Shown one piece after another: positions 1,698 through 15,798 of a stretch of 64,000 nt of DNA; within the stretch, counting starts at the first letter, position 1; each line of letters begins with the position of its first letter. This DNA comes from a virus, in the IMG/VR virus record IMGVR_UViG_3300028840_007026, positions 17,356-81,355 of that record. The stretch is one strand, 5' to 3'. Below the pieces are notes generated by a model. That model searched no databases. It was not told the DNA's origin and worked only from the letters and a program-made list of their open reading frames with translations. Made by a program: the position numbers and the translations under genes.

Positions 1698-1792
1698 TTT
1701 TCTCTCCTTAATTAATAATGAATGTTTTGCCCTTTATTGGGCGATTGGGAAACGTTCCCGACAAATGTGACTGAATGATAACAGGTGAAATA

Positions 1793-3451
1793 TTAATTTT
1801 CTTGTGAAACTCGATATTTTTTTTCTTTTTCCCAAATCCTAACATTTTCCAGTATCGGCTGGCTGGTAGCCAATCTCTGAGTTATTAAAACTTCGTTTGA
1901 AATGGCAAATTCCTGGTGTCTGTGGAAAAGTACACCAATCCTTGCGATTCCCAATTTCTTCTCGTGGTCCATTTGGTTTAAAGCAATTCGCAAATCCAAG
2001 TGAGCATCTTTAGTTTTACTTTCACTCGTTGATAATTGATCCAATTGGTATTGAGTTCTTGAAGCCTTGTTCGCTTGATCCGCATTAATAACTAAGCAGT
2101 TTAATTCACCAGCGAGTTGAGAAGCCTGTTTCCATTTCCTGTCAACTTCATGCCTCATATTATCATCACTTGACTTCCCACTATTTGCTGTAATGTCAAG
2201 GTAGTCGAGTAAAATTATTTCTGGGACCCATTGGTGTTTTTCAATATATCTGTAAATGTAATTCTTTATTTCTTCAAATGTACGAGAAAACCTTGGGAAG
2301 CACTTGACTCTAAAGTTTGCAAGTGCTTTTTCTCTATATTGTCTAATGGTTTTTTTAACTATGCTTGGATGTAAAGCTTTAAGTCGAGAGGAATCAAACC
2401 ATATCGTTGGAAGGAATCTTTTTGTTTTGTGGGCATTGCTTCTAATTTTTGGATTATTGAGACATTCGGTACAACTATTCCATCCACGGTTGTTTATATA
2501 TGAGTAATTTGCTCCCGGATTTTCTATTAAATGGTGACCTCTTCTTTTAAATTTTCTTGCCATTTTCGGAATTCTACATGTTCCAAATTGATTATTTTCA
2601 CAATCGAGAATTGGATAGATCATTCTACCAGCTTTATGTGGGTCAACTGTGCGTGAGATTCTTTTCTGCATTCTCATTCTTTGAAGGGATTCTGATAGCT
2701 CTAAGTTGATTTTAAGTACTTTTCTCCCTTGATATAATGCAGCATCATACCCAATTTCATCGAGTAAAAAACTTTTACCACCCTTCTCAACTGCCGTTAC
2801 AGCGACTAACCAAGATCGCCTCAGCGGGCCGATTAACCTGCCCAGATCACCTTCAAACTCATAGACAACTTCGGAATTAAGATTCCCGGCAATGGCCGAC
2901 TCTTCTACATCTCTTTGTGAAAACGGTAGTATTATCCCCATGTTCTCATCTTCGATTTCATCGGAATCTATATCTGTCCATCCGCTGAATACTTTCGAAG
3001 CCTTTTCCACTTCATCATGAGCCAATAAATCTTGGGCTTTTTCTATTCTCAGGGATAACTCGCATATCCTAATAAAATTTGGAAGATCAAAAAGTATTAC
3101 ATCTTTCGTATTAGTTCCTTCGTCTTCGAAAATATCGTACAGGTCAGATAGGCTCGAAAGGTTTTTCTCCATTACATCCCGTGCAGATTTACTACCAAAC
3201 TGTTTTCCCCTTTTCTTGTGTTCCCAAATTTGTTGAATTCCATGAGCCGGTTGTCTACCAGTTTTTGCGTAGTACTTAATCACCCATTGAAAAATCTTTT
3301 TGTTATCGTTTGTAAAGTAATTTGATTTCAATTCACCTGCAACATACCTCCTGTAACATGCATCGCAAACATCATTGTCCATAATCATGTAACTGAGAAC
3401 TTTTGCTTCCTTCTCGAAATGAGTATTTAAACTTTTTTTCTCAATTATCAT
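1793..3451 (-). CDS. DnaB-like replicative helicase
   Basis: Walker A AVEKGGKS, INLELS motif, Walker B IILLDYLD, ADQANK motif; Cys-rich insertion. Confidence 0.85.
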   Translation of the reverse strand: MIIEKKSLNTHFEKEAKVLSYMIMDNDVCDACYRRYVAGELKSNYFTNDNKKIFQWVIKYYAKTGRQPAHGIQQIWEHKKRGKQFGSKSARDVMEKNLSSLSDLYDIFEDEGTNTKDVILFDLPNFIRICELSLRIEKAQDLLAHDEVEKASKVFSGWTDIDSDEIEDENMGIILPFSQRDVEESAIAGNLNSEVVYEFEGDLGRLIGPLRRSWLVAVTAVEKGGKSFLLDEIGYDAALYQGRKVLKINLELSESLQRMRMQKRISRTVDPHKAGRMIYPILDCENNQFGTCRIPKMARKFKRRGHHLIENPGANYSYINNRGWNSCTECLNNPKIRSNAHKTKRFLPTIWFDSSRLKALHPSIVKKTIRQYREKALANFRVKCFPRFSRTFEEIKNYIYRYIEKHQWVPEIILLDYLDITANSGKSSDDNMRHEVDRKWKQASQLAGELNCLVINADQANKASRTQYQLDQLSTSESKTKDAHLDLRIALNQMDHEKKLGIARIGVLFHRHQEFAISNEVLITQRLATSQPILENVRIWEKEKKYRVSQEN

Positions 3452-4419
3452 TTCTTTGTTATCTCCTTCCAGTTGTGGACAAAAACTTTATCGCCATATG
3501 ATGAACGGTTGAATTTGATCAATGCCTCCGGTAGTAAATGTGAATAGAAATTTTGATACTGGACAAATCGAAGTTGAGTAATTCTCAATGTTTTATATTT
3601 GCACAGTGCGTCACAAATAAAGTCTACCAGCCAAAACGGATCTTTGAAATCGTTTAGTTTAGCCCAATTGGAAAGATAATTTGACCAGCGAATAAATATT
3701 GATTTCTTCTCAGGTCCGTTAATATTTGAGACGTTTGGTTGATACTTTTTCCAAGCTACCATCAATGCTTCTGTCAACGGTTTATTTCTATCTTTCGGAA
3801 CGAATGAATATTTATCGTAAAGATATTTTCTGCCGTTGAGACTTTCTTCAAACCACGATCTGGGAATGTTTTTAAAAGCAGTTTTATTTACCAAACTTTC
3901 GTAATTACTTTTTTCATAACTGAAGAAGTCACCAAGTGTAAATCCGTAATTGGTGTATGCAAAGTAGTACTTGAAGTCCGGGCGACTGAATAACGAGTGA
4001 CAACTTTCAATTGCTGCTATAATCTCTGGAGTAGAGTGTTTTTTAAGTGCTTTCGTAATTTGATTCATAGCTCTTGAAGTTGTTTTTGAGATGACTGGTC
4101 TGTGATGAGCAAATATCCCTTTTTGACTAACCCATACTTTAAAAATCATGTAGTGAGAATTAGTTTCAAATTTTAATTTTCCACTACTCTTATCATTTCC
4201 ACTTCTTTTGAACAGGAATTCATTCCTTTCAACGTTTTTCTTATGCCTTTCAACCATTTTGCGACTCGCTTCGATGGATTCTTTTACCAGTGTTTCTGGT
4301 ATTGCATAAACTCTTCGATGAATTCTTCCACTACCGAATTTTGAGTCTTTTATCCAAATTACAGAGCCTCCCCGATTATACAGATATTTTTTTATCTCAA
4401 GCATAGTTTTTCTTTTCAT
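3448..4419 (-). CDS. Hypothetical protein, possible replication initiator or helicase loader
   Basis: 323-aa ORF with ATGA overlap to the helicase, between primase and helicase; function inferred from position only. Confidence 0.6.
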   Translation of the reverse strand: MKRKTMLEIKKYLYNRGGSVIWIKDSKFGSGRIHRRVYAIPETLVKESIEASRKMVERHKKNVERNEFLFKRSGNDKSSGKLKFETNSHYMIFKVWVSQKGIFAHHRPVISKTTSRAMNQITKALKKHSTPEIIAAIESCHSLFSRPDFKYYFAYTNYGFTLGDFFSYEKSNYESLVNKTAFKNIPRSWFEESLNGRKYLYDKYSFVPKDRNKPLTEALMVAWKKYQPNVSNINGPEKKSIFIRWSNYLSNWAKLNDFKDPFWLVDFICDALCKYKTLRITQLRFVQYQNFYSHLLPEALIKFNRSSYGDKVFVHNWKEITKK

Positions 4420-4691
4420 GTCACTTACCTTCCGATCGTTATGTTCCAGATGTTTTTAATCGCCTCAACTACCCCCCCTCAGACTCCCCCCCTTATGTTT
4501 ATATTTACTTCGTAAATTAATATAAACATTGGGGGTATTGAATAAAGTTTTAATGTTTTTAACACAACATCCCTTTTGACCTGATATTGAGTACTACCTG
4601 AACTCCACTCACACGACTGCTACGCTCGGCAGAGCCTCGCTCCGACAGTCGTTTGGGAACGCGCTGCGCGACGTTCCCCAGAGGAAGTTTT

Positions 4692-5624
4692 TTATTTTTT
4701 AACAAGTTTTAATTCTCTCATGAGAAGATATGCATCCTCCTGGGATAAACTTCCTGGGTCGGACATTTCCTTGATTGAAATAATATTGATTTCCCTTGCT
4801 ATCGAAAAGCATTGTTTTGCGAGCATCCTTGCAGCACGAATCCCTGGATCGTCATTATCGAATAGGATATGGAGGGTAGTTAAATTCTTCCTGATCAATT
4901 CAGCTATTTGCTTCTCGTGGTACATAGTTCCAAAAAAACTAACACTACCGTCTCCAAGCCTCCAAACGTCTGTGGGTCCTTCCACAACTACTGCCGAGCC
5001 GCCTTCAGGAACCGAATCCAAGCCGTAAACAAAGTGTTTGGGGTTTGGGTAGTATTTCTGAGGCGCAGCCTTGTAACGGAGCTCTGAGGCGTCCGTAACA
5101 TCTCGTGAAGTAAACGTTATTATCCTGCCGTTTTTGATTACAGGAATGATAATTCTAAATTTGTAAGGACCATGTATTCCAACTGCTCGCAATTTATATT
5201 TGGGAATTATTTTGTGGGGATTGAAGTTTCTTGAGATGAGATAATTTGTATGAAGTTTTGGAAAGTGCCTAAGTGATTCTTCCGGTAGTTTTAGTGTTAT
5301 TTCTCCATTGACAATTTTGTCAATATAATTTTGTGAACTTGATTCATAACCGTCTTCTTCTGGTGGAATTTCTGTCTCATCGAAATCTCTTACATATTCT
5401 CGTGCTTCCTTCGATGAGATATTGCATACATTGGTGAGAACCCTAATTAGTGATTTACCTCCGCATTTCCAGCAACGACAGCGTAGCGTGGAAAGATTGA
5501 TTCCGAGATGATTACTACTATCATCACAAAATGGACAGGTTAAACCAATCCATCCCCGATTGACGTTTTTACCAGATGTCCAAATCCTCACGTCATGTTC
5601 TTCGAGAAGTTCAATTAGGTCCAT
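4692..5624 (-). CDS. DNA primase (Zn finger plus TOPRIM)
   Basis: CPFC..H...CWKC zinc finger; TOPRIM motifs VVEGPTD and FDNDDPG. Confidence 0.9.
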   Translation of the reverse strand: MDLIELLEEHDVRIWTSGKNVNRGWIGLTCPFCDDSSNHLGINLSTLRCRCWKCGGKSLIRVLTNVCNISSKEAREYVRDFDETEIPPEEDGYESSSQNYIDKIVNGEITLKLPEESLRHFPKLHTNYLISRNFNPHKIIPKYKLRAVGIHGPYKFRIIIPVIKNGRIITFTSRDVTDASELRYKAAPQKYYPNPKHFVYGLDSVPEGGSAVVVEGPTDVWRLGDGSVSFFGTMYHEKQIAELIRKNLTTLHILFDNDDPGIRAARMLAKQCFSIAREINIISIKEMSDPGSLSQEDAYLLMRELKLVKK

Positions 5625-5660
5625 TTGAAATACTCCTCCATACTACCGATTCTCTTTGAT

Positions 5661-7064
5661 TCATATCCATTTTTGTTCCATGTAAATCTGAATTCGTTGC
5701 ACGGTATGTTCGGCTAAGAAACGATATCCGTCGAGAAAATCGACTAAAGTAATTTTACTTTTCCCTACGGATGTTCTCAATCCTCTTCCCATTGCTTGTA
5801 GGATAATTCGCTCTGCTTTCATTCCATGTGCTAATATTATCTTGTTCAACGATGGTATATTCACCCCTTCCCGCCAAACTCTCGAACAAATTACTACTGG
5901 AATTTTTCGTTCCTTCAATTTGTTTTTAATTTTTGTTCTCACCTCCTTATCTGTGGCACCATAAACAAACGGAACTTTTATCCCTTTTAATCTTAACATA
6001 TGTTTCAGGTTTTCTCCATGCCGCGTGTTTTCTATGATTACAAGAACTGTATGCTTTTTCTTGACAGCTTTTAAAACTTCGGCAACAATCAACTCATTGC
6101 GATATTTGTTATTTGTAATCCCCTCATCGTACATTCCTTTGTAACTTCTACCAGCTTTCTCAACGACAGTATGTTCCAGTGGAACTGGTAGTAGTTTAAC
6201 CTCTGGCTTCGCAATGATACCTTTCCTAATTCCTTGCTGCATGCCGAGTTCCGCGATTATTGGCCCGAAAAAACCTTCACAAATTAGTCTTTCTTTTCCT
6301 TTTACTGGAGGAGTAGCACTCAACCCAATTTTAACTGGAGACAAATTGTATTCCATAGTTTTGCCGTATTGGGATTTTTTACTTGTTACTTTATGACATT
6401 CGTCTACAATTGTGACGTCAAAAAAATCGCACCATTCGGTAGGTGAGTACTTTGAAAATGTTTGGATTGTGGAGACAACAATAGGATTTTTAGTTTTTTT
6501 TATTTTACGGAAGGAAGGTTTGTATCCATCACCGAGTGCAAATACTTTTTGCTTTCCTGGTAATAGATTTATTTCTTCGATAGTTTGTGAGAGGAGGTCC
6601 TTCGTATGACATAGGAATAAACGAGGTGAGTTTCTATATAGTGAGAAAATGCCGAGGGCGATAATTGTCTTGCCAGTGCCAGTGGGAAACTTAATTATGC
6701 CTCTTGAGAGCCTTCTAACGGCTCTGATGGCTCGTTTCTGGTCACGGCGAAAGGTTATGCCTTTTAAACTTGGTCGGCTGTTAGATGGCCTGAGAATTTC
6801 GAGATTGCTCCGATCAATAGACAAAAAAAATCCGGTCCGTTCCGCGTACTTTTCAATACGTGGAAGCAGACCGGACAGTAGTGTTCCACCGGAGTTTTTA
6901 CTACCGGTGATTAAATGTTGTTTGGTGACCGTGTTCTTGCCACCAAATCTCCCCCTCCTCCAACTGACGTTTTCATACTCAAGGCAAGGAAGTAGTAATT
7001 CTCTTGCTTCTTTATTTGCCTTGGAATGAATACTGTCAAGTGCGGTTACAAGTGCTTTACCCAT
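5661..7064 (-). CDS. Superfamily 2 DExH helicase (UvsW-like)
   Basis: PTGTGKT, IVDECH, GLSATP, EGVNIP and QAMGRGLR motifs; start moved to the Met at 7064. Confidence 0.9.
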   Translation of the reverse strand: MGKALVTALDSIHSKANKEARELLLPCLEYENVSWRRGRFGGKNTVTKQHLITGSKNSGGTLLSGLLPRIEKYAERTGFFLSIDRSNLEILRPSNSRPSLKGITFRRDQKRAIRAVRRLSRGIIKFPTGTGKTIIALGIFSLYRNSPRLFLCHTKDLLSQTIEEINLLPGKQKVFALGDGYKPSFRKIKKTKNPIVVSTIQTFSKYSPTEWCDFFDVTIVDECHKVTSKKSQYGKTMEYNLSPVKIGLSATPPVKGKERLICEGFFGPIIAELGMQQGIRKGIIAKPEVKLLPVPLEHTVVEKAGRSYKGMYDEGITNNKYRNELIVAEVLKAVKKKHTVLVIIENTRHGENLKHMLRLKGIKVPFVYGATDKEVRTKIKNKLKERKIPVVICSRVWREGVNIPSLNKIILAHGMKAERIILQAMGRGLRTSVGKSKITLVDFLDGYRFLAEHTVQRIQIYMEQKWI

Positions 7065-7387
7065 TCTTGTATTTCCCTTATTATTTGCTGAGCAACCCAA
7101 TTGCTTTTGAAAACCTTTGCGAGATGTTTGTGAATACTTCTTACAGTAACTTCATGCCTACGTGGAGTAGCAATTAAATCGACTATTTCATTCGGGGAAT
7201 TGAGAATAATATCAATCAACTCTTTTGCTTCGTTACTCAATCTCTCCCATGCTTGAATCTTTATTAATGCCTTTTCTGCGGATATTTCTTTCGCCGGTAG
7301 TATTTCATCTTCCGGATCAGCAGAACAATCATTTTTAAAAATCTCATATGCTACTCTATAATCGTTTTCACTAAGTTTTATTGGCAT
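7046..7387 (-). CDS. Hypothetical protein
   Basis: 113-aa ORF in operon orientation, overlapping the helicase start. Confidence 0.7.
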   Translation of the reverse strand: MPIKLSENDYRVAYEIFKNDCSADPEDEILPAKEISAEKALIKIQAWERLSNEAKELIDIILNSPNEIVDLIATPRRHEVTVRSIHKHLAKVFKSNWVAQQIIREIQEWVKHL

Positions 7388-7400
7388 TTCTGGTTTTCCG

Positions 7401-7895
7401 TTATCGCCTCCTTAATGTTCTTTTTTTCTCTGTGGGGCGACGTTTTAATGTTCTCGTTTTTGGTAAGAGTACATCAAATGCCTTTGTTAAGGGGGATTTA
7501 TTTTCTTTTCCATCTCTTCTTTTTAAAACCCTTTTTTGATTCCCCGGATCGGCTATTTCTTCTTTTCTCAGTAGCCTCCTCGGGGTTACAATAGGGACCA
7601 AATCGAGAAAATACCTCTCGATGATTGGTCTGATTTCTTTATCAAATTGTCTACAGTTTTTACACAACTCCCATGATAGTAAGTTTTTCTCATTCCTCCT
7701 TCGTGCTATACATTGGTTGTAATTGAGTCTGCAACCAAAGTTATCACAGTTGAAAATCGTTGGATTGAAGTACTTGCATTGCTTACTGTCAGCTTGTACT
7801 TTTTTCTTTGACGCGATGCACCGCTTAGTGTAGCCGTTGGATTCCCTTTTTACTACATCAGACCGGCACCACCAATGGCAGTTGGAACATGACAT
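7401..7895 (-). CDS. Cys-rich hypothetical protein with basic C-terminus
   Basis: CxxCxxxC and further Cys; AGGAGA RBS; RxLKRR repeats. Confidence 0.75.
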   Translation of the reverse strand: MSCSNCHWWCRSDVVKRESNGYTKRCIASKKKVQADSKQCKYFNPTIFNCDNFGCRLNYNQCIARRRNEKNLLSWELCKNCRQFDKEIRPIIERYFLDLVPIVTPRRLLRKEEIADPGNQKRVLKRRDGKENKSPLTKAFDVLLPKTRTLKRRPTEKKRTLRRR

Positions 7896-7944
7896 TCTCT
7901 TCTCCTTTTTAAAAGGAAAAGCTCCGAATGACTCGGAGCTCTTG

Positions 7945-7973
7945 AGTATACCAAATTGTGCTATAAAAGTAAA
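7945..7973 (-). promoter_or_regulatory. Sigma70-type promoter
   Basis: TTTACT-N17-TATACT with extended -10 TG, followed by hairpin AGCTCCGA/TCGGAGCT (7920-7940). Confidence 0.6.
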
Positions 7974-7981
7974 GAGGCGCT

Positions 7982-9106
7982 CTATTCGGTGCTTTCCTGG
8001 TTTTCAATGATATCGTAAAAGTCATTTTCGGAAGACTTTTGCCTGATGATCATAACCGGAAAACCATCTTTGACCAGTTTCCTTATTACTGCTTTCAATT
8101 TTGCAGTGGTATCCCTTCGACTGCAATTGAATTGCTTTTCAACTGCTGAACACAATTCACCGTAGTAAACACCTTCGCTCATCATTTCAGAGATGAGTGC
8201 GTGAATGCTTTTCTTCCGGTAGCCGAAGCGGTTCAGACCGTAGCGGTTGTTTTCTCCGCGACGTTTCAGAACCCTTTCTTCCTTTTGCGAAGTTTCTTCC
8301 TTCTGTGGAGTTGGAGTTCTCCGTTTGAGAATTCTCGGAGCAGGAGTATTCGGATCAACTTTCATGTCAAGGTCAATGCCGTGACACTTGTTAGCTGCCT
8401 TGAATGCCGCTGCACAAGCGGATACGAAATCCTTCGGTGGAGTTTCGAATTTGTTCTCCCATCGGATTTTCATATTGTTGAGAAATTTGATTGCTGTCGG
8501 AACTACTTTTGCAGCAACACGATTGAATACTGTCGTTTTGGTTGGGATGTGAATGATACGTCCGAATTCATCACCGTCAGTTACATAGTAGGAATAGGAA
8601 AATTGCTTCCCTTCTACCGGACCGACTTCGTTCGACTTGGTACCTTCCTTCAGGAACTCTTTGTAGTTCTCTTCGGATAATTTCTTTTTGCTCACTTCTT
8701 TGGTACCAGTGGAATCCAGTTCATCTACCCGTTTGATAACGTTTTTAATCTTGCCAGACAGTTCATCCAGCTTTTTGATAATCAGGTCTGCGATAAACGG
8801 GTCCAGGTCCTGTTTTGGAGAGCCTTCAGGAGCCTCTTCAGGTTCCCTTTCGGGAGGCCTTTGGTTATGGTTGTCGGCTTCCGGTTTGCTTTCAGGATCT
8901 GCTTTCCCAGCTTGAGCTCTTGCCAATATTGCTCGCTTATGGTCAGCATACCGTTGACACTTCGAACAGGTGATTTCTTCCGGACTGGCTTCGATTGGTT
9001 TGAGTAATCTTCTACCGTCGCATCTTGCAACAACCAAACCATCCAGCATTTTACTGTAATGGATTACTTCGCCTTTGGTTGTTTTACCATACTTTGCATC
9101 AGCCAT
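7982..9106 (-). CDS. Hypothetical protein (N-terminal Zn-binding motif, C-terminal wHTH-like domain)
   Basis: GGAGG RBS before ATG 9106; H...C...CxxC near the N-terminus. Confidence 0.8.
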   Translation of the reverse strand: MADAKYGKTTKGEVIHYSKMLDGLVVARCDGRRLLKPIEASPEEITCSKCQRYADHKRAILARAQAGKADPESKPEADNHNQRPPEREPEEAPEGSPKQDLDPFIADLIIKKLDELSGKIKNVIKRVDELDSTGTKEVSKKKLSEENYKEFLKEGTKSNEVGPVEGKQFSYSYYVTDGDEFGRIIHIPTKTTVFNRVAAKVVPTAIKFLNNMKIRWENKFETPPKDFVSACAAAFKAANKCHGIDLDMKVDPNTPAPRILKRRTPTPQKEETSQKEERVLKRRGENNRYGLNRFGYRKKSIHALISEMMSEGVYYGELCSAVEKQFNCSRRDTTAKLKAVIRKLVKDGFPVMIIRQKSSENDFYDIIENQESTE

Positions 9107-9204
9107 TTTTAATCCTCCTTTGAGTGGGTTGAGTAAATACGTCAGTGTTAACAATATAACACGTTTCGCATTAATTTAGTACGCCAAACTATTTTGGAAT
9201 ACTA

Positions 9205-9234
9205 AATTAATGGGGGAGCCGAAGCTCCCCAATT
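9205..9234 (-). terminator. Terminator or 3' hairpin closing the ribozyme-punctuated operon
   Basis: GGGGAGC-TTCG-GCTCCCC (C(UUCG)G tetraloop) just after the 9238 stop; U-tail is weak. Confidence 0.65.
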
Positions 9235-9237
9235 GGG

Positions 9238-9468
9238 TTAAACATAGGGACTTCTCAACGGGACGTGAAGTCGAGACTTGCTACGCTTGGACGGATCCCT
9301 GCGAACTTCTCGAGCAGTTGCCATATAATGCTCTGTGATATCTCTCCAATGGTGGAAACAAAAAAGATGTTTTTGGGTCGGTTTCCGATCTGCGACGTTT
9401 TTCTTAATGGGTTTTCCACAGATCTCACATCGGCGATTGCTCATTTCGGTGTACGGAACCTTTTTCAT
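9238..9468 (-). CDS. Small Zn-finger protein
   Basis: CEIC...CFHH; AGGAG RBS; ATGA overlap with the upstream gene. Confidence 0.75.
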   Translation of the reverse strand: MKKVPYTEMSNRRCEICGKPIKKNVADRKPTQKHLFCFHHWRDITEHYMATAREVRRDPSKRSKSRLHVPLRSPYV

Positions 9469-9812
9469 TTCTTCTCCTTAATTAGATATGACATTGAAAG
9501 TACTGCTTCCTTAATCGCTTTATGGCCGAGTTCGTAAAAGTAATAGAGTACAACGAACGTCTCATACGAACCTTGTTGAAGTGGAATATAATCGCCAATT
9601 AAAGAACGGAGAATGTCGGGATTGTCATATGCATCATCTGCTGCACAATCCCTTTCAGAACCGTAACCACGATGGTTGAAATCCTCATCTACTGCTACCA
9701 TATCGTAAACTGCTGACTGGAGCCAGTTGATGTAGTTCTCAACACCATCTTTGATTTGTTCTTCTGTGAGCTGCTTCATGGTTTCATAGTTTTGCAATTG
9801 TAGATCTACCAT
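9465..9812 (-). CDS. Hypothetical acidic protein
   Basis: AGGAGG RBS before ATG 9812; the track's extension to 9887 runs through ribozyme HH1. Confidence 0.8.
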   Translation of the reverse strand: MVDLQLQNYETMKQLTEEQIKDGVENYINWLQSAVYDMVAVDEDFNHRGYGSERDCAADDAYDNPDILRSLIGDYIPLQQGSYETFVVLYYFYELGHKAIKEAVLSMSYLIKEKK

Positions 9813-9833
9813 AATAATCCTCCTATAAGTAGT

Positions 9834-9904
9834 AAAGGTTGCCTCATCAGTAATAGGGTTCCTATCCCTATCAGACGAGGGGAGCAATTTCCCCTCGTTT
9901 CGGC
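9834..9904 (-). ncRNA. Hammerhead ribozyme type II (HH1)
   Basis: gcc-GAAA-cgagggga/ucccucg-UC^-ugauaggg/cccuauua-CUGAUGA-ggc; loop I AGG pairs with 3' tail CCU; cleavage 9874/9873. Confidence 0.95.
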
Positions 9905-10101
9905 TACAATTTTTTCATGATCCAATCAGCATGAGTATATTGGTAATAATGCATCATGTGGACCAATTGGTTGTGAATCTCCATAACTCCGGCTGGACAA
10001 TGATCAGGGCTTTTCCATGTTGCTTCAATTTCTTCTATCTTTCCCATAAAGGTTTTTCTTTCTACCAGCATTATTCTTTCGTTCATTTTTTTACTCCTCA
10101 T
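9904..10101 (-). CDS. Hypothetical protein
   Basis: 65-aa ORF (start may be the internal Met); stop TAG overlaps the 5' end of HH1. Confidence 0.7.
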   Translation of the reverse strand: MRSKKMNERIMLVERKTFMGKIEEIEATWKSPDHCPAGVMEIHNQLVHMMHYYQYTHADWIMKKL

Positions 10102-10423
10102 TTATAGAAGGTAGGTCTCTAATACTGTCCCACAAATTTCTCTTTTCCAGTTCGATAGCATTATGAATAATTCTTTCATAACACTTGATGAAACGTTTGA
10201 ACTTGGAAAGATCACCGTTTTCCCATGCGTAGACGATATGCATCGAAATTCCAACGAGCATCAATAACTGCTCATGTACTGTCGATTGAGTCTTTGCAAT
10301 CTTGAGATGATGGTAGCAAAGATCGTTTGGAATGTCTGTATCTTCTTTCCATTTTCTTTTTTCACAAACTTTTTCTTTAACCGGGACTTTCCTTGCCTTC
10401 CTTTTTGGTTTTTCTACTTTCAT
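10091..10423 (-). CDS. Hypothetical protein
   Basis: AGGAGG RBS before ATG 10423 (MKVEKPKRK...). Confidence 0.75.
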   Translation of the reverse strand: MKVEKPKRKARKVPVKEKVCEKRKWKEDTDIPNDLCYHHLKIAKTQSTVHEQLLMLVGISMHIVYAWENGDLSKFKRFIKCYERIIHNAIELEKRNLWDSIRDLPSINEE

Positions 10424-10450
10424 AATAAATCCTCCTGTTAGTTGGTAGTT

Positions 10451-10515
10451 ATGAGCAAATCTCATCAGGCATGGTAGCTCATTTCCATGCGACTCCCCGA
10501 AGGGAGTTTCGAATT
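10451..10515 (-). ncRNA. Hammerhead ribozyme type II (HH2)
   Basis: GAAA-cuccc(uucg)gggag-UC^-gcaugg/ccaugc-CUGAUGA; loop I AUGAGC pairs with tail GCUCAU (6 bp); cleavage 10491/10490. Confidence 0.95.
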
Positions 10516-10606
10516 AAAGGTTAAACATGAGAATAGTAAAAATGTAGATGACAACGAGAATAAGAAGACCAGCGAAGATCTCAAGAATAATTTCCAGATC
10601 CTTCAT
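10514..10606 (-). CDS. 30-aa single-pass membrane peptide
   Basis: MKDLEIILEIFAGLLILVVIYIFTILMFNL*; ATGA overlap with the upstream stop; its TAA abuts HH2; below the ORF-track cutoff. Confidence 0.7.
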   Translation of the reverse strand: MKDLEIILEIFAGLLILVVIYIFTILMFNL

Positions 10607-10911
10607 GTTGTTTCCCTTTCGTTAGAAATTTTGGCAATTTCCCTGAACGTGATTGGGTTCACATACATCTTGCAAAGTGGGGAGTATTTGTCTTTCGTGC
10701 CCTTTAAAGCAATTTTAAGGCATGATTGACAGTAATTCAAATCGTCGTAATATTGAAACTGCTTCACAAATGTTTTCTCAACCGGTTGGACGTAATAACA
10801 TCCACAAGCGATTGCACATCCGCATAAGGAATACTCTTCTCCAGTTTCTTCATCCGTTTCGAACAAATGAATCTTTCGGGTCAACCAATACTTCATTTGA
10901 TGGTATAACAT
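10603..10911 (-). CDS. Cys-rich hypothetical protein
   Basis: GGAGG RBS; H...CGC...CxxC. Confidence 0.75.
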   Translation of the reverse strand: MLYHQMKYWLTRKIHLFETDEETGEEYSLCGCAIACGCYYVQPVEKTFVKQFQYYDDLNYCQSCLKIALKGTKDKYSPLCKMYVNPITFREIAKISNERETT

Positions 10912-11220
10912 TTAGCCTCCTATCACTCGACCGTAAGTAGTAATTAGTTCCCTTCCCACCGGAGTTTCAGTTGAAATCATAGAATCCTTGGAAAGGCAGT
11001 AAATACATTCCGTTTTTTTCGGTAGACAAATCCTCAATGCGGAATAGACTACTGCTATTGTGACGGTTATGACTGGGATGATGATAGTAAACCAGAACAT
11101 GATAAACGAGGCTGGTACAACAACAAACCAAGCGAGAATTTCGGTCCATATATCACCGAATCGCTCGTTCCTTGGTTTCCCGATTACTCCACAATTCTTG
11201 CAAATTAGTTCCTGTGACAT
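10912..11220 (-). CDS. Membrane protein with split Zn ribbon (LITAF-like topology)
   Basis: CxxC, hydrophobic hairpin, CxxC; AGGAGG RBS. Confidence 0.8.
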   Translation of the reverse strand: MSQELICKNCGVIGKPRNERFGDIWTEILAWFVVVPASFIMFWFTIIIPVITVTIAVVYSALRICLPKKTECIYCLSKDSMISTETPVGRELITTYGRVIGG

Positions 11221-11246
11221 GATAAATCCTCCTGTTAAGTAGTAAT

Positions 11247-11317
11247 AAAGGGTACCTCATCAGTGCGTAGTTCCCTAATCTACGCAGACGGGAGAAAAAA
11301 ATTTCTCCCGTTTCGGC
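11247..11317 (-). ncRNA. Hammerhead ribozyme type II (HH3)
   Basis: gcc-GAAA-cgggagaaa/uuucucccg-UC^-ugcguag/cuacgca-CUGAUGA-ggu; loop AGGG pairs with tail CCCU; cleavage 11287/11286. Confidence 0.95.
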
Positions 11318-12187
11318 TTAGACGTCCAGTTTACGTTTTACCTTGAAGTCAGGAACAGCTTTAATTTGTTTTGCGATCTTCTCCATCTTTTTCGAAACTT
11401 CTCCACGGAAGTCCTCGCTGTTCCTAAGTTTGTCGGCAGAGGTTTTCTTCATTTGGATGCGAAGGGATCTCATTATGGATTTCATTTTCTTCCCATCAAT
11501 ATTGTCTTTCCAGAGATCATCCCACTTGCCAAGAAACTTATCAAGGGCATTAATCGTTCCAGCGTTGATCTTGTCATTGTCGCACTGTTCTTTTAATTTC
11601 TCAATGCGAGCGAGCAACGTGCTGCCAATGATATTGACAGCCATCATCTCCATCTCATTTGCCATGGATTGAAACTTCTCCCTTTCCCTTTTGTACATCG
11701 AAGCAGTTAGTATACCTGCATCTTTATCGGGAAGTTGAAACTGGAAAAATCTCCAAAAGAAATCATGTTTTGCTCTGATTGAATCTGCCGAAGGGTAGTT
11801 TGTTTCATCGTAGTACTCGGGGTACTTGGTTTTAAAGCTACGCTTTAATGACCCCATTTTCTTAACAAGCTTATCCGTGAGTTCAGCGTATTCGGCTTTG
11901 AGTTCAGTAAACACCTTGTCCAAATACTCAATCTTGTGTTTGGGTACCCAGAACACTCCGTCGACAGGAAACGGCATGGAACTATTGAGAAGTTCCCTTT
12001 TTGTTGCCCGTTTTACTGCGAGAAGATCGTCGATGATAGTTCTATCATCTACCAGATCCTGGACACCGCGAACGATTTCAGACGGAACATCAGGTCCCAG
12101 CTTGTCTTTACTCAGTTTGGTGTAAGCTCCCCAACGGCTAACTTTCAATTGACAAAGGACGCCTTCATTTAATTGTTCGACTTTCAT
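11318..12187 (-). CDS. DUF3150-like helical protein
   Basis: 289 aa; L.VSRWG, SMPFPVDGVFWVP and YPSADSIRAKHDF resemble DUF3150-type phage proteins; AGGAGG RBS. Confidence 0.6.
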   Translation of the reverse strand: MKVEQLNEGVLCQLKVSRWGAYTKLSKDKLGPDVPSEIVRGVQDLVDDRTIIDDLLAVKRATKRELLNSSMPFPVDGVFWVPKHKIEYLDKVFTELKAEYAELTDKLVKKMGSLKRSFKTKYPEYYDETNYPSADSIRAKHDFFWRFFQFQLPDKDAGILTASMYKREREKFQSMANEMEMMAVNIIGSTLLARIEKLKEQCDNDKINAGTINALDKFLGKWDDLWKDNIDGKKMKSIMRSLRIQMKKTSADKLRNSEDFRGEVSKKMEKIAKQIKAVPDFKVKRKLDV

Positions 12188-12211
12188 AAATCCTCCTATA
12201 AGTTAGTAGTA

Positions 12212-12273
12212 AAAGTTGCCTCATCAGATAACAAGTTCTTATCTTGCTATGACCGCCCGAAGGCGGTTTCGGC
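12212..12273 (-). ncRNA. Hammerhead ribozyme type II (HH4)
   Basis: gcc-GAAA-ccgcc(uucg)ggcgg-UC^-auagcaag/cuuguuau-CUGAUGA-ggc; loop AAG pairs with tail CUU; cleavage 12251/12250. Confidence 0.95.
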
Positions 12274-12680
12274 TAATATTCCAATGTAATCAGAATATCC
12301 CCATTGGTGTCCTTCTCAGTAAATACACCCTCAATTTCCGTGTAGTCAATGTTCTTCAATACTACACTGGAATTGTACTTTTGGAGCGTCAACCCGAGCA
12401 AATCCATTGTTGAACATTCCTCACCGTATGGTCCTATTACTGTACGATCGCTACCAAAGTGATCATACCTAATACTACCGTCTGGACTTATTGCTAACGG
12501 GTATGCCCAGCCTTTGAGATGGACCTCTGCGATTGCATTGTTAACACTATTATGACCATAGTGTTTAACTGCAAAGGCTTTCCCACCCAAGTACTTTACT
12601 CGATGACCGAGTTCTTTACAGATGGTACAGAAAGTTTCAACGTCAGTCACTTTTTGTGCATAGCGAGTTGTATGGCTCAT
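12273..12680 (-). CDS. DUF1257 (Ycf35)-like protein
   Basis: Starts MSHTT.. at 12680 and ends GDILITLEY, typical ends for this family; adjacent to DUF2997-like and AAA+ genes. Confidence 0.6.
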   Translation of the reverse strand: MSHTTRYAQKVTDVETFCTICKELGHRVKYLGGKAFAVKHYGHNSVNNAIAEVHLKGWAYPLAISPDGSIRYDHFGSDRTVIGPYGEECSTMDLLGLTLQKYNSSVVLKNIDYTEIEGVFTEKDTNGDILITLEY

Positions 12681-12727
12681 TTTTATTTCCTTTTTAGTTT
12701 GGTAGTAAAATGTTTTTTGAGAATTAA

Positions 12728-12940
12728 TCATCCGCACCATTCACTCGGAAGACCATTTGAGATTGTTTCTTTGTTTTCCCAGTAGCTATCCTTATAGTTA
12801 CGCTGCTGGTCATTACCACCGAACAACTTGTCAAGGAATGCGGTTGCTTCTTCACAGCTACCGCCTTTAAAGTTGAATGCTTCGACACGTACTGAACCAT
12901 TTTTCCCTAAAGTGATTTTTACTTTACGTTTTTCTTCCAT
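12728..12940 (-). CDS. DUF2997-like protein
   Basis: KITLGKNGSVRVEAFNFKGGSCEEATAFLDKLFG matches the DUF2997 pattern. Confidence 0.75.
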   Translation of the reverse strand: MEEKRKVKITLGKNGSVRVEAFNFKGGSCEEATAFLDKLFGGNDQQRNYKDSYWENKETISNGLPSEWCG

Positions 12941-12968
12941 TTTATCCTCCTATAAGTTAATTGTGTTA

Positions 12969-13034
12969 TGGCTTGCCTCATCAGTGCTACCGTAGCCAGT
13001 GGTAGCAGACGGGCCTGAATCGGCCCGTTTCGGC
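12969..13034 (-). ncRNA. Hammerhead ribozyme type II (HH5)
   Basis: gcc-GAAA-cgggcc/ggcccg-UC^-ugcuacc/gguagca-CUGAUGA-ggc; loop UGGCU pairs with tail AGCCA; cleavage 13008/13007. Confidence 0.95.
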
Positions 13035-13037
13035 GAG

Positions 13038-14450
13038 TTATTTATCGATGCGACGTCTTCCCGGCCGTTTAACTGTTCGCGTTTCCATAACGGTTTCAGC
13101 GGGTATCGTTCGGCCTTTTGCCCAATCCCTTAGTCTTGCAATGCTTTCCCCTGCCGTTTTTGCTTGTGGAATAATGGCTTTCGAAGCCTCAATAAGCGAT
13201 ACTCCTCTCATGTCGGCAATGTGAACCAATGCTTCGATTTCAGCGCCGGAGAAGTCAACAAGTGAAGGTGTTTTTTGTTTTGGGAGATTCGCATTTACCC
13301 TGTAGTGTTCCAGAATAGAACTTGCAACTTTTTGGGAAGGGTAGTCGATGAAAAAGGGAGATGAATCCCAGCGACCAGGACGCAAATACTCGTTTGGAAT
13401 TCCCTCAAAGCTATTTGCTGTCCCAACAATGTAAACCCCTTTCGGACGGTTTTGCAGAAAGTCTAACCACCGACCAGTCGCACGTCGTGTTGTACCACTA
13501 TCGAGCGAACCATCGCTATTACTACCAGCGAACTGCTTTTCGAATTCGTCGATGAGAACTACACATTCACCAATTGAACAAATGATTTCGATCGCAGTAT
13601 TGATATTCTGGTCGGTTTCCCCTTGAAACTTAGAAAATAACGAACCCATATTGATGGAAAGACCGAATTTCTTAGTCTCACCGACAATTGCTTTCATTAG
13701 GGTAGTCTTACAACATCCCGGAGGGCCGATCGTAATAATGCCTTTTGCTTTTGGATTATCGATCGTCGAAAGGATAAACTGCTTTATGTTATCGTATCCA
13801 ACCACATCCTTGAACGTAAGATTTCCATCGAGAACATCGAGAAAACCGGTTTTCCGTATTGCTTGAGCCTTGTGCTCGTTGATCGTCTCAATACTAAAAC
13901 CTTTTCCGTTCGACTCAACTAATGAAAGCGCGAGAACGTTATCAAGTTCACTTCGACTCAACCCCTTACAACTGTTAGCTACTTTCGTTATTTCTTCGGG
14001 TGAAAGGTTTTTGTCTGCCATTTCTTGAATCGCGGTAGTAATTTCAGGACCGTTAGGAAGTGGAAGATCAATAAGAACATACTCTTTTTCCAGCTCCACC
14101 GGTAGTTTTTTTGAATGGGACACGCAGATAATTGCTTTCCCCTGAGATGACCAGAGTTTAGCATTGTCTTTTATGTGCTGAATGACCTGAGGCTTTTCAG
14201 CAAACCAGTGCCAATTGTAAAGAAAAATAACCGTTAATTCTTCGGCCTGATCCAGAACCTGAAGCGGTTCTCTCGGGTCGTTTCCTTTTGCCAAGGACCA
14301 TTCCCTGACGGAGTACTTCCCGCCATCTTTACGTTCAAAGTTTTTAATGGTTTCATACACCTTTTCCCTTACGAAGTCATGCTCAGAAGTTCGGAGCCAA
14401 AACGTTGAAAAACCTGCACGTAGATAATTAATGATCTTGTCAGCTTTCAT
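13038..14450 (-). CDS. AAA+ ATPase (Ycf46-like, degenerate N-terminal plus active-type C-terminal AAA module)
   Basis: Walker A GPPGCCKT, SKFQGE pore loop, Walker B VLIDEFEK, TAN sensor, LRPGRWD arginine finger. Confidence 0.9.
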   Translation of the reverse strand: MKADKIINYLRAGFSTFWLRTSEHDFVREKVYETIKNFERKDGGKYSVREWSLAKGNDPREPLQVLDQAEELTVIFLYNWHWFAEKPQVIQHIKDNAKLWSSQGKAIICVSHSKKLPVELEKEYVLIDLPLPNGPEITTAIQEMADKNLSPEEITKVANSCKGLSRSELDNVLALSLVESNGKGFSIETINEHKAQAIRKTGFLDVLDGNLTFKDVVGYDNIKQFILSTIDNPKAKGIITIGPPGCCKTTLMKAIVGETKKFGLSINMGSLFSKFQGETDQNINTAIEIICSIGECVVLIDEFEKQFAGSNSDGSLDSGTTRRATGRWLDFLQNRPKGVYIVGTANSFEGIPNEYLRPGRWDSSPFFIDYPSQKVASSILEHYRVNANLPKQKTPSLVDFSGAEIEALVHIADMRGVSLIEASKAIIPQAKTAGESIARLRDWAKGRTIPAETVMETRTVKRPGRRRIDK

Positions 14451-14473
14451 AAATCCTCCTATAAGTTAGTAGT

Positions 14474-14542
14474 AAAGGTTACCTCATCAGTACCCAAGTT
14501 CCTATCTTAGGTAAACGGGAGAAGTATTTCTCCCGTTTCGGC
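14474..14542 (-). ncRNA. Hammerhead ribozyme type II (HH6, GUU cleavage triplet)
   Basis: gcc-GAAA-cgggagaa/uucucccg-UU^-uaccuaag/cuugggua-CUGAUGA-ggu; loop AGG pairs with tail CCU; cleavage 14514/14513. Confidence 0.9.
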
Positions 14543-14866
14543 TTATGCTGTTTCAACTCTGTATCTTGGATCGTATTCCCAGTCACTACTGTCTGGGAAC
14601 AACCTCAAGAATATTTCGTAAGCTTTGTAACCGGAAGTTCTCCGGTTGTATTCTTTTTTGATTTCTTTCATGCTACGAATACCATACTCGGAAAACAGCC
14701 TTTCGAATTCGTTTTTTACTCCCTTGAAATAACCTCTGTACATATCCTGGAAACACTCTCCTGGTGCACCCCACAGAGACATATCATTATCCATTGCTTC
14801 TATGTCTTCCGCCATTTGATAGAATTTACTCAGGATCATTCCAAATGATTTTTTCCAATCTTTCAT
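14543..14866 (-). CDS. Hypothetical protein
   Basis: AAGGAGG RBS before ATG 14866 (MKDWKKSF...). Confidence 0.8.
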   Translation of the reverse strand: MKDWKKSFGMILSKFYQMAEDIEAMDNDMSLWGAPGECFQDMYRGYFKGVKNEFERLFSEYGIRSMKEIKKEYNRRTSGYKAYEIFLRLFPDSSDWEYDPRYRVETA

Positions 14867-14886
14867 AATTCCTCCTTTGTGGTTGT

Positions 14887-14949
14887 TGACTTGTCTCATC
14901 AGCGGTCAGGTTGTCACCCTGTACCGGACTCCCCAAAGGGAGTTTCGAC
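14887..14949 (-). ncRNA. Hammerhead ribozyme type II (HH7)
   Basis: guc-GAAA-cuccc(uuug)gggag-UC^-cggu(a)cagg/ccugaccg-CUGAUGA-gac; loop UGAC pairs with tail GUCA; cleavage 14927/14926. Confidence 0.93.
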
Positions 14950-15161
14950 TATGCTACTTGAAGATCGAGCGAAGCGTAATCAACACGAGCCCAAAACTCG
15001 TCCCATGATTCGTCTTCGTTTAACGGTTGAGAGTAGTAAACACATTTCCCGTTTTCTTCAATTTCAACATGCCACTCGTTCCACTTCTCAAGGTATCTCA
15101 GGATAAAGGTTTGTCCGTCGATAATTTCTTTTTCTTTGATTGAGCGATCGATCTTTTTCAT
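14949..15161 (-). CDS. Small acidic hypothetical protein, first gene of the leftward operon
   Basis: TAAGGAGG RBS; 70 aa; TAG overlaps the start of HH7. Confidence 0.8.
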   Translation of the reverse strand: MKKIDRSIKEKEIIDGQTFILRYLEKWNEWHVEIEENGKCVYYSQPLNEDESWDEFWARVDYASLDLQVA

Positions 15162-15184
15162 AATGCCTCCTTAATAAGATTCAT

Positions 15185-15798
15185 ATATTTGCCTGTCCCA
15201 AACACTTTAAAGCCTTCAAACGGCTCCTGAGGGCTCCACTCAAAGGCTTTAAGGTGGAGGCGAATATAAATACTCGCCTCCGGGTAGGCTCAACTTAAAA
15301 GGAGGAGGATATATTGCATAGCTGCGACAGTACTGAGAATATTCCTGTCGGTTTTCCAAATGATTCCGACTTGGTTTTACTTAACTTATTCAAACCAATT
15401 GTTCCTTGTCGGCACGTTTTTTTTCAAATGGGTTTCACTATGGCTTGCCAGCACATATTCAGCATAGTTTCAACCGGTGGCCGGTGGTTTTCTATGCTGC
15501 CTGGTATCAGAAGTTCGAGATTTTTTAATCTTGCGTTATCAACGGAATGTTTTTTTCTACCATATCCGAATCCGGATTTTTATCCGGCCGTTTTTTTGTT
15601 TCCTCGGAAACGTTTTCGGTCATGCAATTTTACTCACATGGAAAATGCGAACTTAGGTAGTAGTTCGATCCCGTTTTTTCAACCAGTATTTTAAAAGAAA
15701 AAAGTCGCAATATGTTTTGTTTTATCAACAGCCTTTCGGTCATTGAATAGCTGAACGCGACCAGTGCAGCGGGTGAACATGTTTTAAAAGAACATGTT
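15185..15798 (-). ncRNA. Candidate large structured RNA or leader
   Basis: No minus-strand ORF; many hairpins joined by A-rich linkers; long-range complement between 15704-15713 and 15311-15328. Confidence 0.45.

Follow-up and report, generated by a model that had tools for sequence, protein, structure and literature searches.

A seven-copy array of predicted type II hammerhead ribozymes bounding the gene units of a phage operon

The window analysed here is a 64-kb part of a complete virus record of 81,355 bp with direct terminal repeats. Within 5.1 kb of one operon of this uncultured phage it carries seven type II hammerheads (HH1 to HH7), all on the minus strand, which is also the strand of the genes, and these bound units of one to three genes. 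The block adjoins a divergent region and lies upstream of helicase, primase and DnaB-like genes, a position that is the sole basis for describing it as early. All of the features given below are on the minus strand. The first ORF (70 aa; 14949..15161) is upstream of HH1, in the 5′ terminal piece of the proposed message. Unit 1 is a 107-aa gene without a family match (14543..14866); an ORF of 118 aa had been listed here, and was corrected because its start, 14899, falls inside the CUGAUGA of HH1 and the start preceded by a Shine-Dalgarno (SD) sequence is at 14866. Unit 2 is a gene for an AAA ATPase (13038..14450; PF00004, phrog_8638), and unit 3 (12273..12940) consists of a DUF2997 gene (12728-12940) and a gene for a 135-aa protein (12273-12680). 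A DUF3150 protein is specified by unit 4 (11318..12187), and unit 5 (10514..11220) holds three abutting or overlapping small genes of 102, 102 and 30 aa, the last of these being hydrophobic. Unit 6 (9904..10423) consists of a pair of small genes for 110 and 60 aa, and the 3′ terminal piece (9238..9812) of a pair that overlap (115 and 76 aa). Every intergenic gap of at least 80 nt in this co-oriented block holds a hammerhead, and the 47-nt gap between the DUF2997 and 135-aa genes is without a ribozyme. Just 3′ of the last gene is a GC-rich hairpin of 7 bp with a UUCG loop and a weak U-tract (9213..9230), which may close the transcription unit or stabilise the 3′ end.

The ribozymes are fitted closely to the ends of the genes, starting 0-3 nt past the stop codon or overlapping it by 1 nt in all seven cases. 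HH1 (14887..14949; predicted cut after C14927) shares the G of the TAG codon that precedes it, and HH2 (14476..14542; cut after U14514) follows directly on the TAA that ends the 107-aa gene. HH3 (12969..13034; cut after C13008) begins 3 nt past the stop of the AAA ATPase gene. In HH4 (12213..12273; cut after C12251) and HH7 (9836..9904; cut after C9874) the G of a TAG stop is common to the gene end and the ribozyme; the remaining two are HH5 (11249..11317; cut after C11287) and HH6 (10451..10513; cut after C10491). From the end of CUGAUGA to the next SD-led ATG there are 29-38 nt. The parsed H17 positions (14927, 14514, 13008, 12251, 11287, 10491 and 9874) delimit inter-cut units of 413, 1506, 757, 964, 796 and 617 nt. 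An earlier note on this DNA had predicted the same seven minus-strand elements between stop codons and the next starts, and its cut sites and unit sizes are matched exactly by the parsing.

Using the description of the type in Rfam RF02276 and in Perreault et al. (2011) as the standard, parsing gave a three-way junction with looped stems I and III and an open stem II in each of the seven copies. The conserved core (C3 U4 G5 A6 N7 G8 A9, G12 A13 A14, the A15.1-U16.1 pair, and an H17 that is not G) is intact in all of them, as is C at 11.1; H17 is C in six copies and U in one. Mispairs flanking the core are absent throughout, with G-C at 10.1-11.1, A-U at 15.1-16.1 and standard pairing at 1.1-2.1. 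Stem III ranges from 6 to 10 bp (10 bp in HH5), and stem I has 4-8 contiguous bp, with one bulge in HH1. After stem I come CUGAUGA and the open stem II of 2-3 bp, which has 3 bp in HH1 and only 2 bp plus a U-U mismatch in HH6. Read directly from the sequence, the stem II strands of neighbouring copies could pair in full in three of the six units (HH2-3, HH3-4 and HH4-5), as would be needed for the two ends of a unit to rebuild one hammerhead and be ligated to a circle in the manner of viroid-like or retrozyme-like RNAs. Minimum free energy folds recovered stems I and III in all seven copies and stem II in five, with z-scores of -1.9 to -4.2.

The motif CGAAAC..GTH..CTGATGA has seven matches in the 64-kb window, on the minus strand only (9844-14947), compared to a mean of 0.17 in 100 shuffled sequences, none of which reached seven. 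A looser scan of both strands of the whole 81,355-bp genome, with type I/III order included, found no further hairpin-consistent hammerhead. The search with the Rfam Hammerhead_II model that the earlier note had suggested as a check gave HH3 (38.8 bits) as the sole copy over the gathering cut-off of 37 bits, with four copies below it (HH7 34.6, HH2 33.1, HH4 31.7 and HH1 28.6), and HH5 and HH6 not reported by cmscan with RF02276. Our own model (R1) scored HH1 at 66.6, HH2 at 84.5, HH5 at 82.8, HH6 at 49.8 and HH7 at 83.7 bits. By the sequence-level criteria of core, junction and pseudoknot, the seven elements are type II hammerheads.

Within the window, comparison of the seven copies showed changes in both partners for 17 of 23 pairs, and pairing was kept in 86% of cells; the controls gave 62% when shuffled and 35-45% when slid. 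When 43 distinct sequences of the clade were compared, 92.8% of cells were paired (62.7% after shuffling), and both partners had changed in 19 of 21 pairs. Covariation backs all three stems, both in the window copies and in the clade sequences. A pseudoknot between loop I and the 3′ tail occurs in every copy, with 3 bp in HH2, HH4 and HH7, 4 bp in HH1 and HH5, 5 bp in HH3 and 6 bp in HH6; four of the seven therefore have the four or more pairs expected in most members of the family, and three have 3 bp. Its three central pairs change on both sides among the window copies, and it is copy-specific, the cognate loop/tail pairing sum being reached by only 12 of 5040 permutations. These results uphold what had been proposed earlier, namely stems that differ in sequence and keep pairing, and the individual, covarying pseudoknots. 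Selection for structure in the seven hammerheads is supported by these patterns. Some copies may be slow, since three of the pseudoknots are only 3 bp and, as found by Perreault et al. (PMC3088659), trimming a 6-bp pseudoknot to 4 bp gave about 20-fold slower cleavage at 0.5 mM Mg2+.

Each ribozyme is followed by a G-poor leader and an SD sequence (for example, the leader with AGGAGG at 14451..14475), and the leaders after HH2, HH4 and HH7 are near-identical. The predicted 5′ UTR after cutting is 60-67 nt for all seven. There is no room for promoters in the gaps because ribozyme and leader fill them. Within the block, chance accounts for the number of promoter-like matches (18, versus 15.2 expected) and of terminator-like matches (10, versus 7.2 expected). 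The predicted accessibility of the SD sequences showed no consistent change between cut and uncut RNA, so cutting does not obviously unmask ribosome-binding sites.

Relatives that share the AAA-ATPase/DUF2997/DUF3150 module carry 7-14 type II hammerheads in each record, invariably on the strand of the genes (totals of 7, 8, 9, 10 and 14 in whole related records). Our own model found 45 further hammerheads, again all in the orientation of the genes, in seven of ten related loci; the remaining three gave none. The junction 5′ of the AAA gene could be compared in nine distinct lineages: six have a hammerhead, one a permuted pistol-like element and two long hairpins. Long hairpins at junctions are found only in relatives L001 and L008, and L001, where they stand instead of hammerheads, is the sister lineage of the window (support 96/96). 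The occurrence of a hammerhead, a pistol-like element or hairpins at the equivalent junction points to selection for a boundary RNA element there, and this selection probably acts on cutting.

From these features, it is reasonably likely that the elements are functional hammerheads in one leftward polycistronic phage message, cutting it into insulated units. A single transcript would run over the block, and each hammerhead would fold after RNA polymerase has passed and then cut after H17. The products would be held together by the 2-3 bp of stem II alone and so should separate at once. The message would be divided in the infected cell into eight pieces: a 5′ piece with the 70-aa ORF, six units, and a 3′ piece. 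Upstream pieces would end about 20-30 nt past the stop codon with the GC-rich stem III hairpin and a 2′,3′-cyclic phosphate, and downstream pieces would start with a 5′-hydroxyl, the stem I/pseudoknot fold, the G-poor leader and a strong SD sequence. The probable gain is that every gene block would become an insulated expression unit with capped ends, decaying independently of its neighbours and translated independently both of them and of host endonucleases. That 5′-hydroxyl and cyclic-phosphate ends may be of benefit is taken from what is generally known of bacterial RNA decay, and we infer that the chemistry of the ends affects stability and translation here.

The same features could serve a different purpose, and it is conceivable, if rather unlikely, that the ribozymes set expression levels or a timed shut-off instead of plainly stabilising units. 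Cutting rates would then be site-specific, as determined by pseudoknots of 3-6 bp and a stem II of 2-3 bp, a ribosome terminating at the adjoining stop codon would mask the ribozyme's 5′ strand and make cutting dependent on upstream translation, and cut RNAs might decay faster, not slower. The spread of pseudoknot lengths and the position of the ribozymes at or over stop codons both fit this scheme, as do the core variants, with C replacing U4, at specific junctions of relatives; regulated or slow phage variants are also discussed by Perreault et al. (PMC3088659). However, neither a ligand-binding nor a switch element can be seen, the fold is that of a minimal ribozyme only, and the abutment on stop codons may be mere genome compaction.

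It is quite improbable that ribozyme and leader persist as recombination modules or selfish repeats, by duplication and cassette exchange and with little benefit from cutting. Exchange is suggested by gene order, since the AAA unit comes first in the window and in L006 and DUF2997 comes first in the other nine loci, with [AAA] and [DUF2997+135-aa] swapping order as whole bounded units, and some relatives have near-identical hammerhead copies across the whole array. The window copies, though, are diverged (mean column identity of 66%) and still keep every core nucleotide and the pairing, which argues for selection on catalytic structure and not repeat homology alone, and selection on function is also indicated by the use of different ribozyme classes at one and the same junction. 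A further proposal, which we regard as very improbable, is that co-transcriptional cutting frees the upstream RNA, with any Rho or exonuclease on it, from the polymerase, thereby suppressing polarity over a long operon of small genes, and that the 5′-hydroxyl blocks 5′-end-dependent nucleases. There are 13 co-oriented ORFs, with no terminator-like site on their own strand before 9230, from which such a need might be inferred, and hammerhead cuts leave a 5′-hydroxyl as a matter of family chemistry (PMC8782182), but no sequence feature addresses Rho, and the hairpins at the same junctions in relatives would be left unexplained unless they too are cut. That the elements are inactive look-alikes or chance matches is extremely improbable, for while six of the seven are below the Rfam gathering score, they covary, no shuffle yielded seven matches, and 34 matches in the related loci are above that score. 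Self-cutting of the polycistron into the units given above is plausible and, as the best reading of the data, the most likely.

Several known systems are relevant to this self-cutting. In phage T7, RNase III cuts the early polycistronic mRNA at structured intergenic sites, producing hairpin-capped, gene-sized mRNAs. Such sites are intergenic double-stranded hairpins of about two helical turns, and the window elements, being three-way junctions with stems of 4-10 bp, do not belong to this type. The array may nevertheless work like T7 early-mRNA processing, with the difference that T7 relies on a host enzyme and double-stranded hairpins, whereas here the RNA would cut itself; the long hairpins of L001 and L008 may be the enzyme-dependent version. 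In synthetic insulators of the RiboJ type, a hammerhead upstream of the ribosome-binding site trims away variable RNA and leaves a hairpin and a defined 5′ end. RNA viruses of fungi and plants are described as having 5′ UTRs in which self-cleavage promotes translation (PMC13725137). The window shares with the former the location of a hammerhead just upstream of a ribosome-binding site, but those cases are engineered parts or eukaryotic and cap-independent, and the folding comparison here gave no consistent unmasking of the SD sequence.

Ribozyme-rich neighbourhoods yielded the pistol, hatchet and twister-sister classes (Weinberg et al. 2015, as summarised in PMC10085705 and PMC6765202), and the biological reason for them is stated as unknown in those summaries. 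As there, distinct classes of self-cleaving RNA occur in equivalent positions, close to phage genes and to one another; here the equivalence is at orthologous junctions of one conserved gene module across related phages, and includes hairpins that are not ribozyme-like. In Desulfovibrio vulgaris, three type II hammerheads were found by cyPhyRNA-seq to be active in cells, and fragments with 2′,3′-cyclic phosphate and with 5′-hydroxyl ends were both captured in vivo (PMC8782182). The ribozyme type and the phage-like gene neighbourhood are alike, and two of the three D. vulgaris copies are close together, but as described in that study they are scattered chromosomal copies and not a seven-copy operon array.

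The closest precedent is that of Perreault et al. 2011 (PMC3088659), where arrays of two to three prophage hammerheads cleaved in vitro and in E. coli, and where it was proposed that long phage transcripts are processed to gene-length or operon-length mRNAs, so that the novelty of this idea in the earlier note was overstated. Circles were sought in other arrays and, in the account given there, none were found (data not shown in that paper). Common to those arrays and the present one are same-strand hammerheads flanking single phage genes or short blocks, and the pseudoknot between loop I and the 3′ tail. Unlike the arrays of two to three just mentioned, this one packs seven copies into 5.1 kb, and the records of relatives hold as many as 14; all are type II, and each has a uniform leader and SD sequence, as predicted from sequence. 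The dense array is a further case of a phage arrangement described since 2011.

The seven minus-strand type II hammerheads proposed in the earlier note (HH1 to HH7, from 14949 down to 9836 in one leftward gene block) were borne out by pattern searching and by parsing of the individual copies. The composite motif CGAAAC..GTH..CTGATGA has seven matches in the window, which fall between 9844 and 14947 and without exception on the minus strand, against a mean of 0.17 in shuffled sequence, and none of 100 shuffles reached seven. CTGATGA on its own is not enriched (13 observed vs 11.5 expected), so the signal resides in the composite motif, and a looser scan of the whole genome, on either strand and with the motif in either order, brought up no copy beyond the seven. 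Each parsed copy has the full hammerhead core, with a stem III of 6–10 bp, a stem I of 4–8 contiguous bp and an open stem II of 2–3 bp. The expected junction is the MFE fold in all seven (stem II itself in five), with z-scores of -1.9 to -4.2. In a scan of all 64 kb at the Rfam gathering threshold, Hammerhead_II was the sole ribozyme class found. The search with that model, suggested in advance as a check, agreed only for HH3 (38.8 bits), the sole copy above the gathering score of 37; HH7 (34.6 bits), HH2 (33.1), HH4 (31.7) and HH1 (28.6) fall below it, and HH5, with its 10-bp stem III, and HH6, with a 2-bp stem II and a long loop, drew no Rfam report. Among the membership criteria it is on the gathering score alone that most copies fall short; as the defining features of core and pairing are all present, the shortfall is read as one of model sensitivity. 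Judged from these features, type II identity is considered secure for the seven copies.

The parsed H17 falls exactly on each of the seven cut sites predicted previously, and parsing returns the same sizes for the six units between them (413, 1506, 757, 964, 796 and 617 nt). Covariation of the stems and of the pseudoknot between loop I and the 3' tail, also claimed at the outset, is evident in an alignment of the seven copies, where mean column identity is 66% and both sides change in 17 of the 23 proposed pairs, including each of the three central pseudoknot pairs. In this alignment 86% of cells are paired, compared with 62% after shuffling and 35–45% with slid partners, and when tails are exchanged among loops just 12 of the 5040 permutations reach the summed loop/tail complementarity of the cognate arrangement. 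A covariance model trained on the seven copies recovered exactly these seven in the window; in related loci it found 45 further hammerheads, each of them on the gene strand. Among 43 distinct sequences, both sides change in 19 of 21 pairs, and 92.8% of cells are paired vs 62.7% when shuffled; fitting to the model biases this alignment towards the structure, but slid controls reach 36–44% and the gap is still large.

The placement of the elements between a stop codon and the next start is as first described. Every ribozyme begins 0–3 nt past a stop codon or shares the last G of the stop, and an ATG preceded by AGGAGG stands 29–38 nt past the end of CUGAUGA, giving a predicted 5' UTR of 60–67 nt after cutting in 7/7 cases. 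Junctions of the block that carry no ribozyme are overlaps, abutments and one 47-nt gap, so that every gap of at least 80 nt has a hammerhead. The leaders that follow the ribozymes (9813–9835, 12188–12212, 14451–14475 and their equivalents, minus strand) are G-poor and end in AGGAGG with a spacer of 4–7 nt; those after HH2, HH4 and HH7 are near-identical. They are reminiscent of the translational enhancer in the T7 gene 10 leader. At 14866–14899 (minus strand), a listed ORF of 118 aa opens at an ATG inside the CUGAUGA of HH1, and the start led by a Shine–Dalgarno sequence (SD), at 14866, gives 107 aa; an automatic annotator would be likely to run the gene on into HH1.

The parent record is 81,355 bp long, has direct terminal repeats of 144 bp and is rated complete. 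Leftward, minus-strand genes begin at about 15.2 kb of the window, and rightward, plus-strand genes, among them large virion-type proteins, at about 16.2 kb. Since genes for a ResIII/DEAD helicase, a Toprim primase-like protein and a DnaB-like protein lie downstream of the hammerhead block on the minus strand, the block forms the head of a leftward non-structural operon, and to call it early is a reasonable inference. A GC hairpin with a weak U-tract follows the last two genes of the block (9213–9230, minus strand). Before the first ORF, the untranslated stretch 15165–15300 (minus strand) has two stable hairpins, one with an SD-like GGAGG in its stem, and may serve the operon as a structured 5' leader. 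The AAA ATPase of the block belongs to PF00004 and phrog_8638, and for six of the ten block proteins searched PHROGs and Pfam gave no function. A blastn search of window 9400–15200 against the phage record collection returned no match, and a search for sequencing runs that contain window sequence listed none of RNA, only DNA contig runs, which come from metagenomes of sediment and seawater.

Self-processing of the polycistron is probable. After the predicted cut, the two products are joined by stem II alone (2–3 bp), since stems I and III each close as a hairpin and the pseudoknot forms within the 3' product. The upstream RNA would then terminate in the stem III hairpin, bearing a cyclic phosphate, and the downstream RNA would have a 5'-OH, followed by the stem I/pseudoknot fold. 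In bacterial RNA decay, both types of end are expected to resist end-dependent nucleases, and it is these ends that favour the reading of the array as a means of self-processing into insulated, end-capped expression units, which we hold to be the likely one, with appreciable room for others. The rivals named are tuned or conditional cutting, recombination modules, circular mRNAs, anti-polarity and inactivity.

The circular mRNA reading proposes that excised units re-dock and are ligated, either through reversal of the hammerhead reaction or by an RtcB-type ligase of the host, to give a circular, exonuclease-proof mRNA that retains its Shine–Dalgarno sequence. Every excised unit carries a hammerhead 3' half in front and the 5' half of the next hammerhead at its back, and in three of the six units the ends have a compatible GCC/GGY stem II, so that they could re-dock and be joined. 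Perreault et al. 2011 sought circular or spliced products in their arrays and report finding none (PMC3088659). We regard circularization as improbable. Were it true, the phage operon would be a train of protein-encoding viroid-like monomers, and the circularizing bounded units would be cassettes reshuffled between related phages. Two other proposals were rejected. The first was that each unit has its own promoter or terminator; consensus scans within the block are at chance level both for promoter-like (18 vs 15.2 expected) and for terminator-like sequences (10 vs 7.2); phage-specific promoters may be present. The second was that cutting unmasks the ribosome-binding site; in partition-function calculations that compare cut RNA with its uncut form, the latter extended by 200 nt upstream, pseudoknots being ignored, the probability of an unpaired SD rises in four of seven units and falls in three, all by modest amounts.

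Related phages show how the boundaries of the units vary. A search with the AAA ATPase found ten viral loci (L001 to L010) at 42–65% identity, and all ten hold a four-gene module of DUF2997, a 135-aa protein, the AAA ATPase and DUF3150. The AAA proteins of L003, L004 and L005 are identical, as are those of L007 and L131, a relative found in genome contigs, which leaves nine distinct lineages with the window included. Rfam places 34 type II hammerheads above its cut-off across seven of the ten loci, and whole related records have 7, 8, 9, 10 or 14, each set on one strand; seven copies are thus typical of the clade, not extreme. The record of L010 (G008:2050-14263, minus strand), complete at 95 kb, has 14 type II matches, which share one strand and a span of 12 kb. 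Viral contigs scanned with the pattern yielded at least 120 stretches, with arrays of up to eight among the matches listed. The junction 5' of the AAA gene has a hammerhead in six of the nine lineages, and the 3' junction has one in four of the six hammerhead-bearing lineages, the other two being without a gap before the next gene. In most relatives a terminator-like hairpin after DUF3150 closes the operon, and the window has HH5 there. The order of [AAA] and [DUF2997 + 135-aa] (window 12273–14450) is swapped in the window and in L006 relative to nine other loci, and each swapped unit shifts whole, together with its ribozyme boundaries.

Several details of the relatives deserve mention. At specific junctions the conserved U4 is replaced by C, giving CCGAUGA (L003:2685-2759, L004:6921-6995, L005:4776-4850 and L010:8622-8707), and these may be slow or variant-core ribozymes. 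In tblastn the AAA gene of L010 (6001–7397, plus strand) was matched in two pieces that overlap, pointing to a frameshift or to a fault in assembly. L131 (JASFHE010000001.1) is an 83-kb contig binned in a Desulfobacteraceae MAG; with its AAA protein identical to that of L007 it is taken to be the same phage, and the binning hints, weakly, at sulfate-reducing Thermodesulfobacteriota of sediments as hosts of the clade.

Other elements occupy the same junctions in some lineages. L009 (4500–9560, plus strand) has six pistol-like cores at gene junctions where the window has hammerheads; they score 21–29 bits with the Rfam Pistol model, below its cut-off of 34.5. The first hairpin has moved from the 5' to the 3' side of the core, in effect a circular permutation; the loop of this hairpin is invariant and can pair with the pistol pseudoknot strand, and its stem covaries, in an alignment with five informative rows of six. 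Activity is reported for engineered pistols that were circularly permuted with their native ends joined (PMC10103173). L008 (2815–7770, plus strand) carries an irregular hairpin of 65 nt and about 22 bp in seven copies, each with the same leader and SD after it, at junctions that have ribozymes in relatives. L001, the sister lineage of the window in the AAA tree (support 96/96), has no hammerhead in its locus and has about ten intergenic modules (950–9500, plus strand) in which a GC-rich hairpin abuts one of 13–20 bp and a conserved GGCAA-type box follows. Against Rfam, the L001 and L008 hairpins gave no family match, only spurious sub-threshold microRNA-like ones. We infer that they look like substrates of a double-strand-specific nuclease; they could just as well be ribozymes of an unknown kind, and those of L008 may belong to an unknown RNA class. 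If they are sites for a host RNase, selection maintains the cut itself. Separately, at L007:6880-6985 (plus strand), directly upstream of DUF3150, a GC-rich hairpin with an internal loop that is not a hammerhead stands where other lineages have one. That the element is replaced and the junction retained is the best indirect evidence for selection acting on the boundary function.

The roles of self-cleaving ribozymes in bacteria and phages have been called 'largely elusive' in a review (PMC6765202), and their function there is a long-standing open question, for which this series of sister phages is a good system. The natural comparison is unusually clean: one conserved four-gene module is bounded, according to lineage, by hammerheads (in most), by permuted pistol-like elements (in one) or by long hairpins (in two, including the sister of the window). 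The seven copies would also be ready as orthogonal, sequence-diverged insulator parts for synthetic operons. The literature searched held no replacement of a ribozyme by a hairpin at orthologous junctions, and no array of at least seven type II hammerheads in one phage operon, where the supplement of Perreault et al. (Figures S1–S3, Dataset S1) may list larger ones. Ribozyme classes are reported to cluster near one another and near phage genes for reasons described as unknown (PMC10085705, PMC6765202), and type II hammerheads to cleave in cells of D. vulgaris (PMC8782182). Perreault et al. 2011 described the type II form and its pseudoknot, noted prophage arrays that flank genes, proposed transcript processing, and reported that triple arrays cleave in vitro and in E. 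coli (PMC3088659). Set beside that account, the present array is a dense example of the gene-flanking phage hammerheads already described there (PMC3088659).
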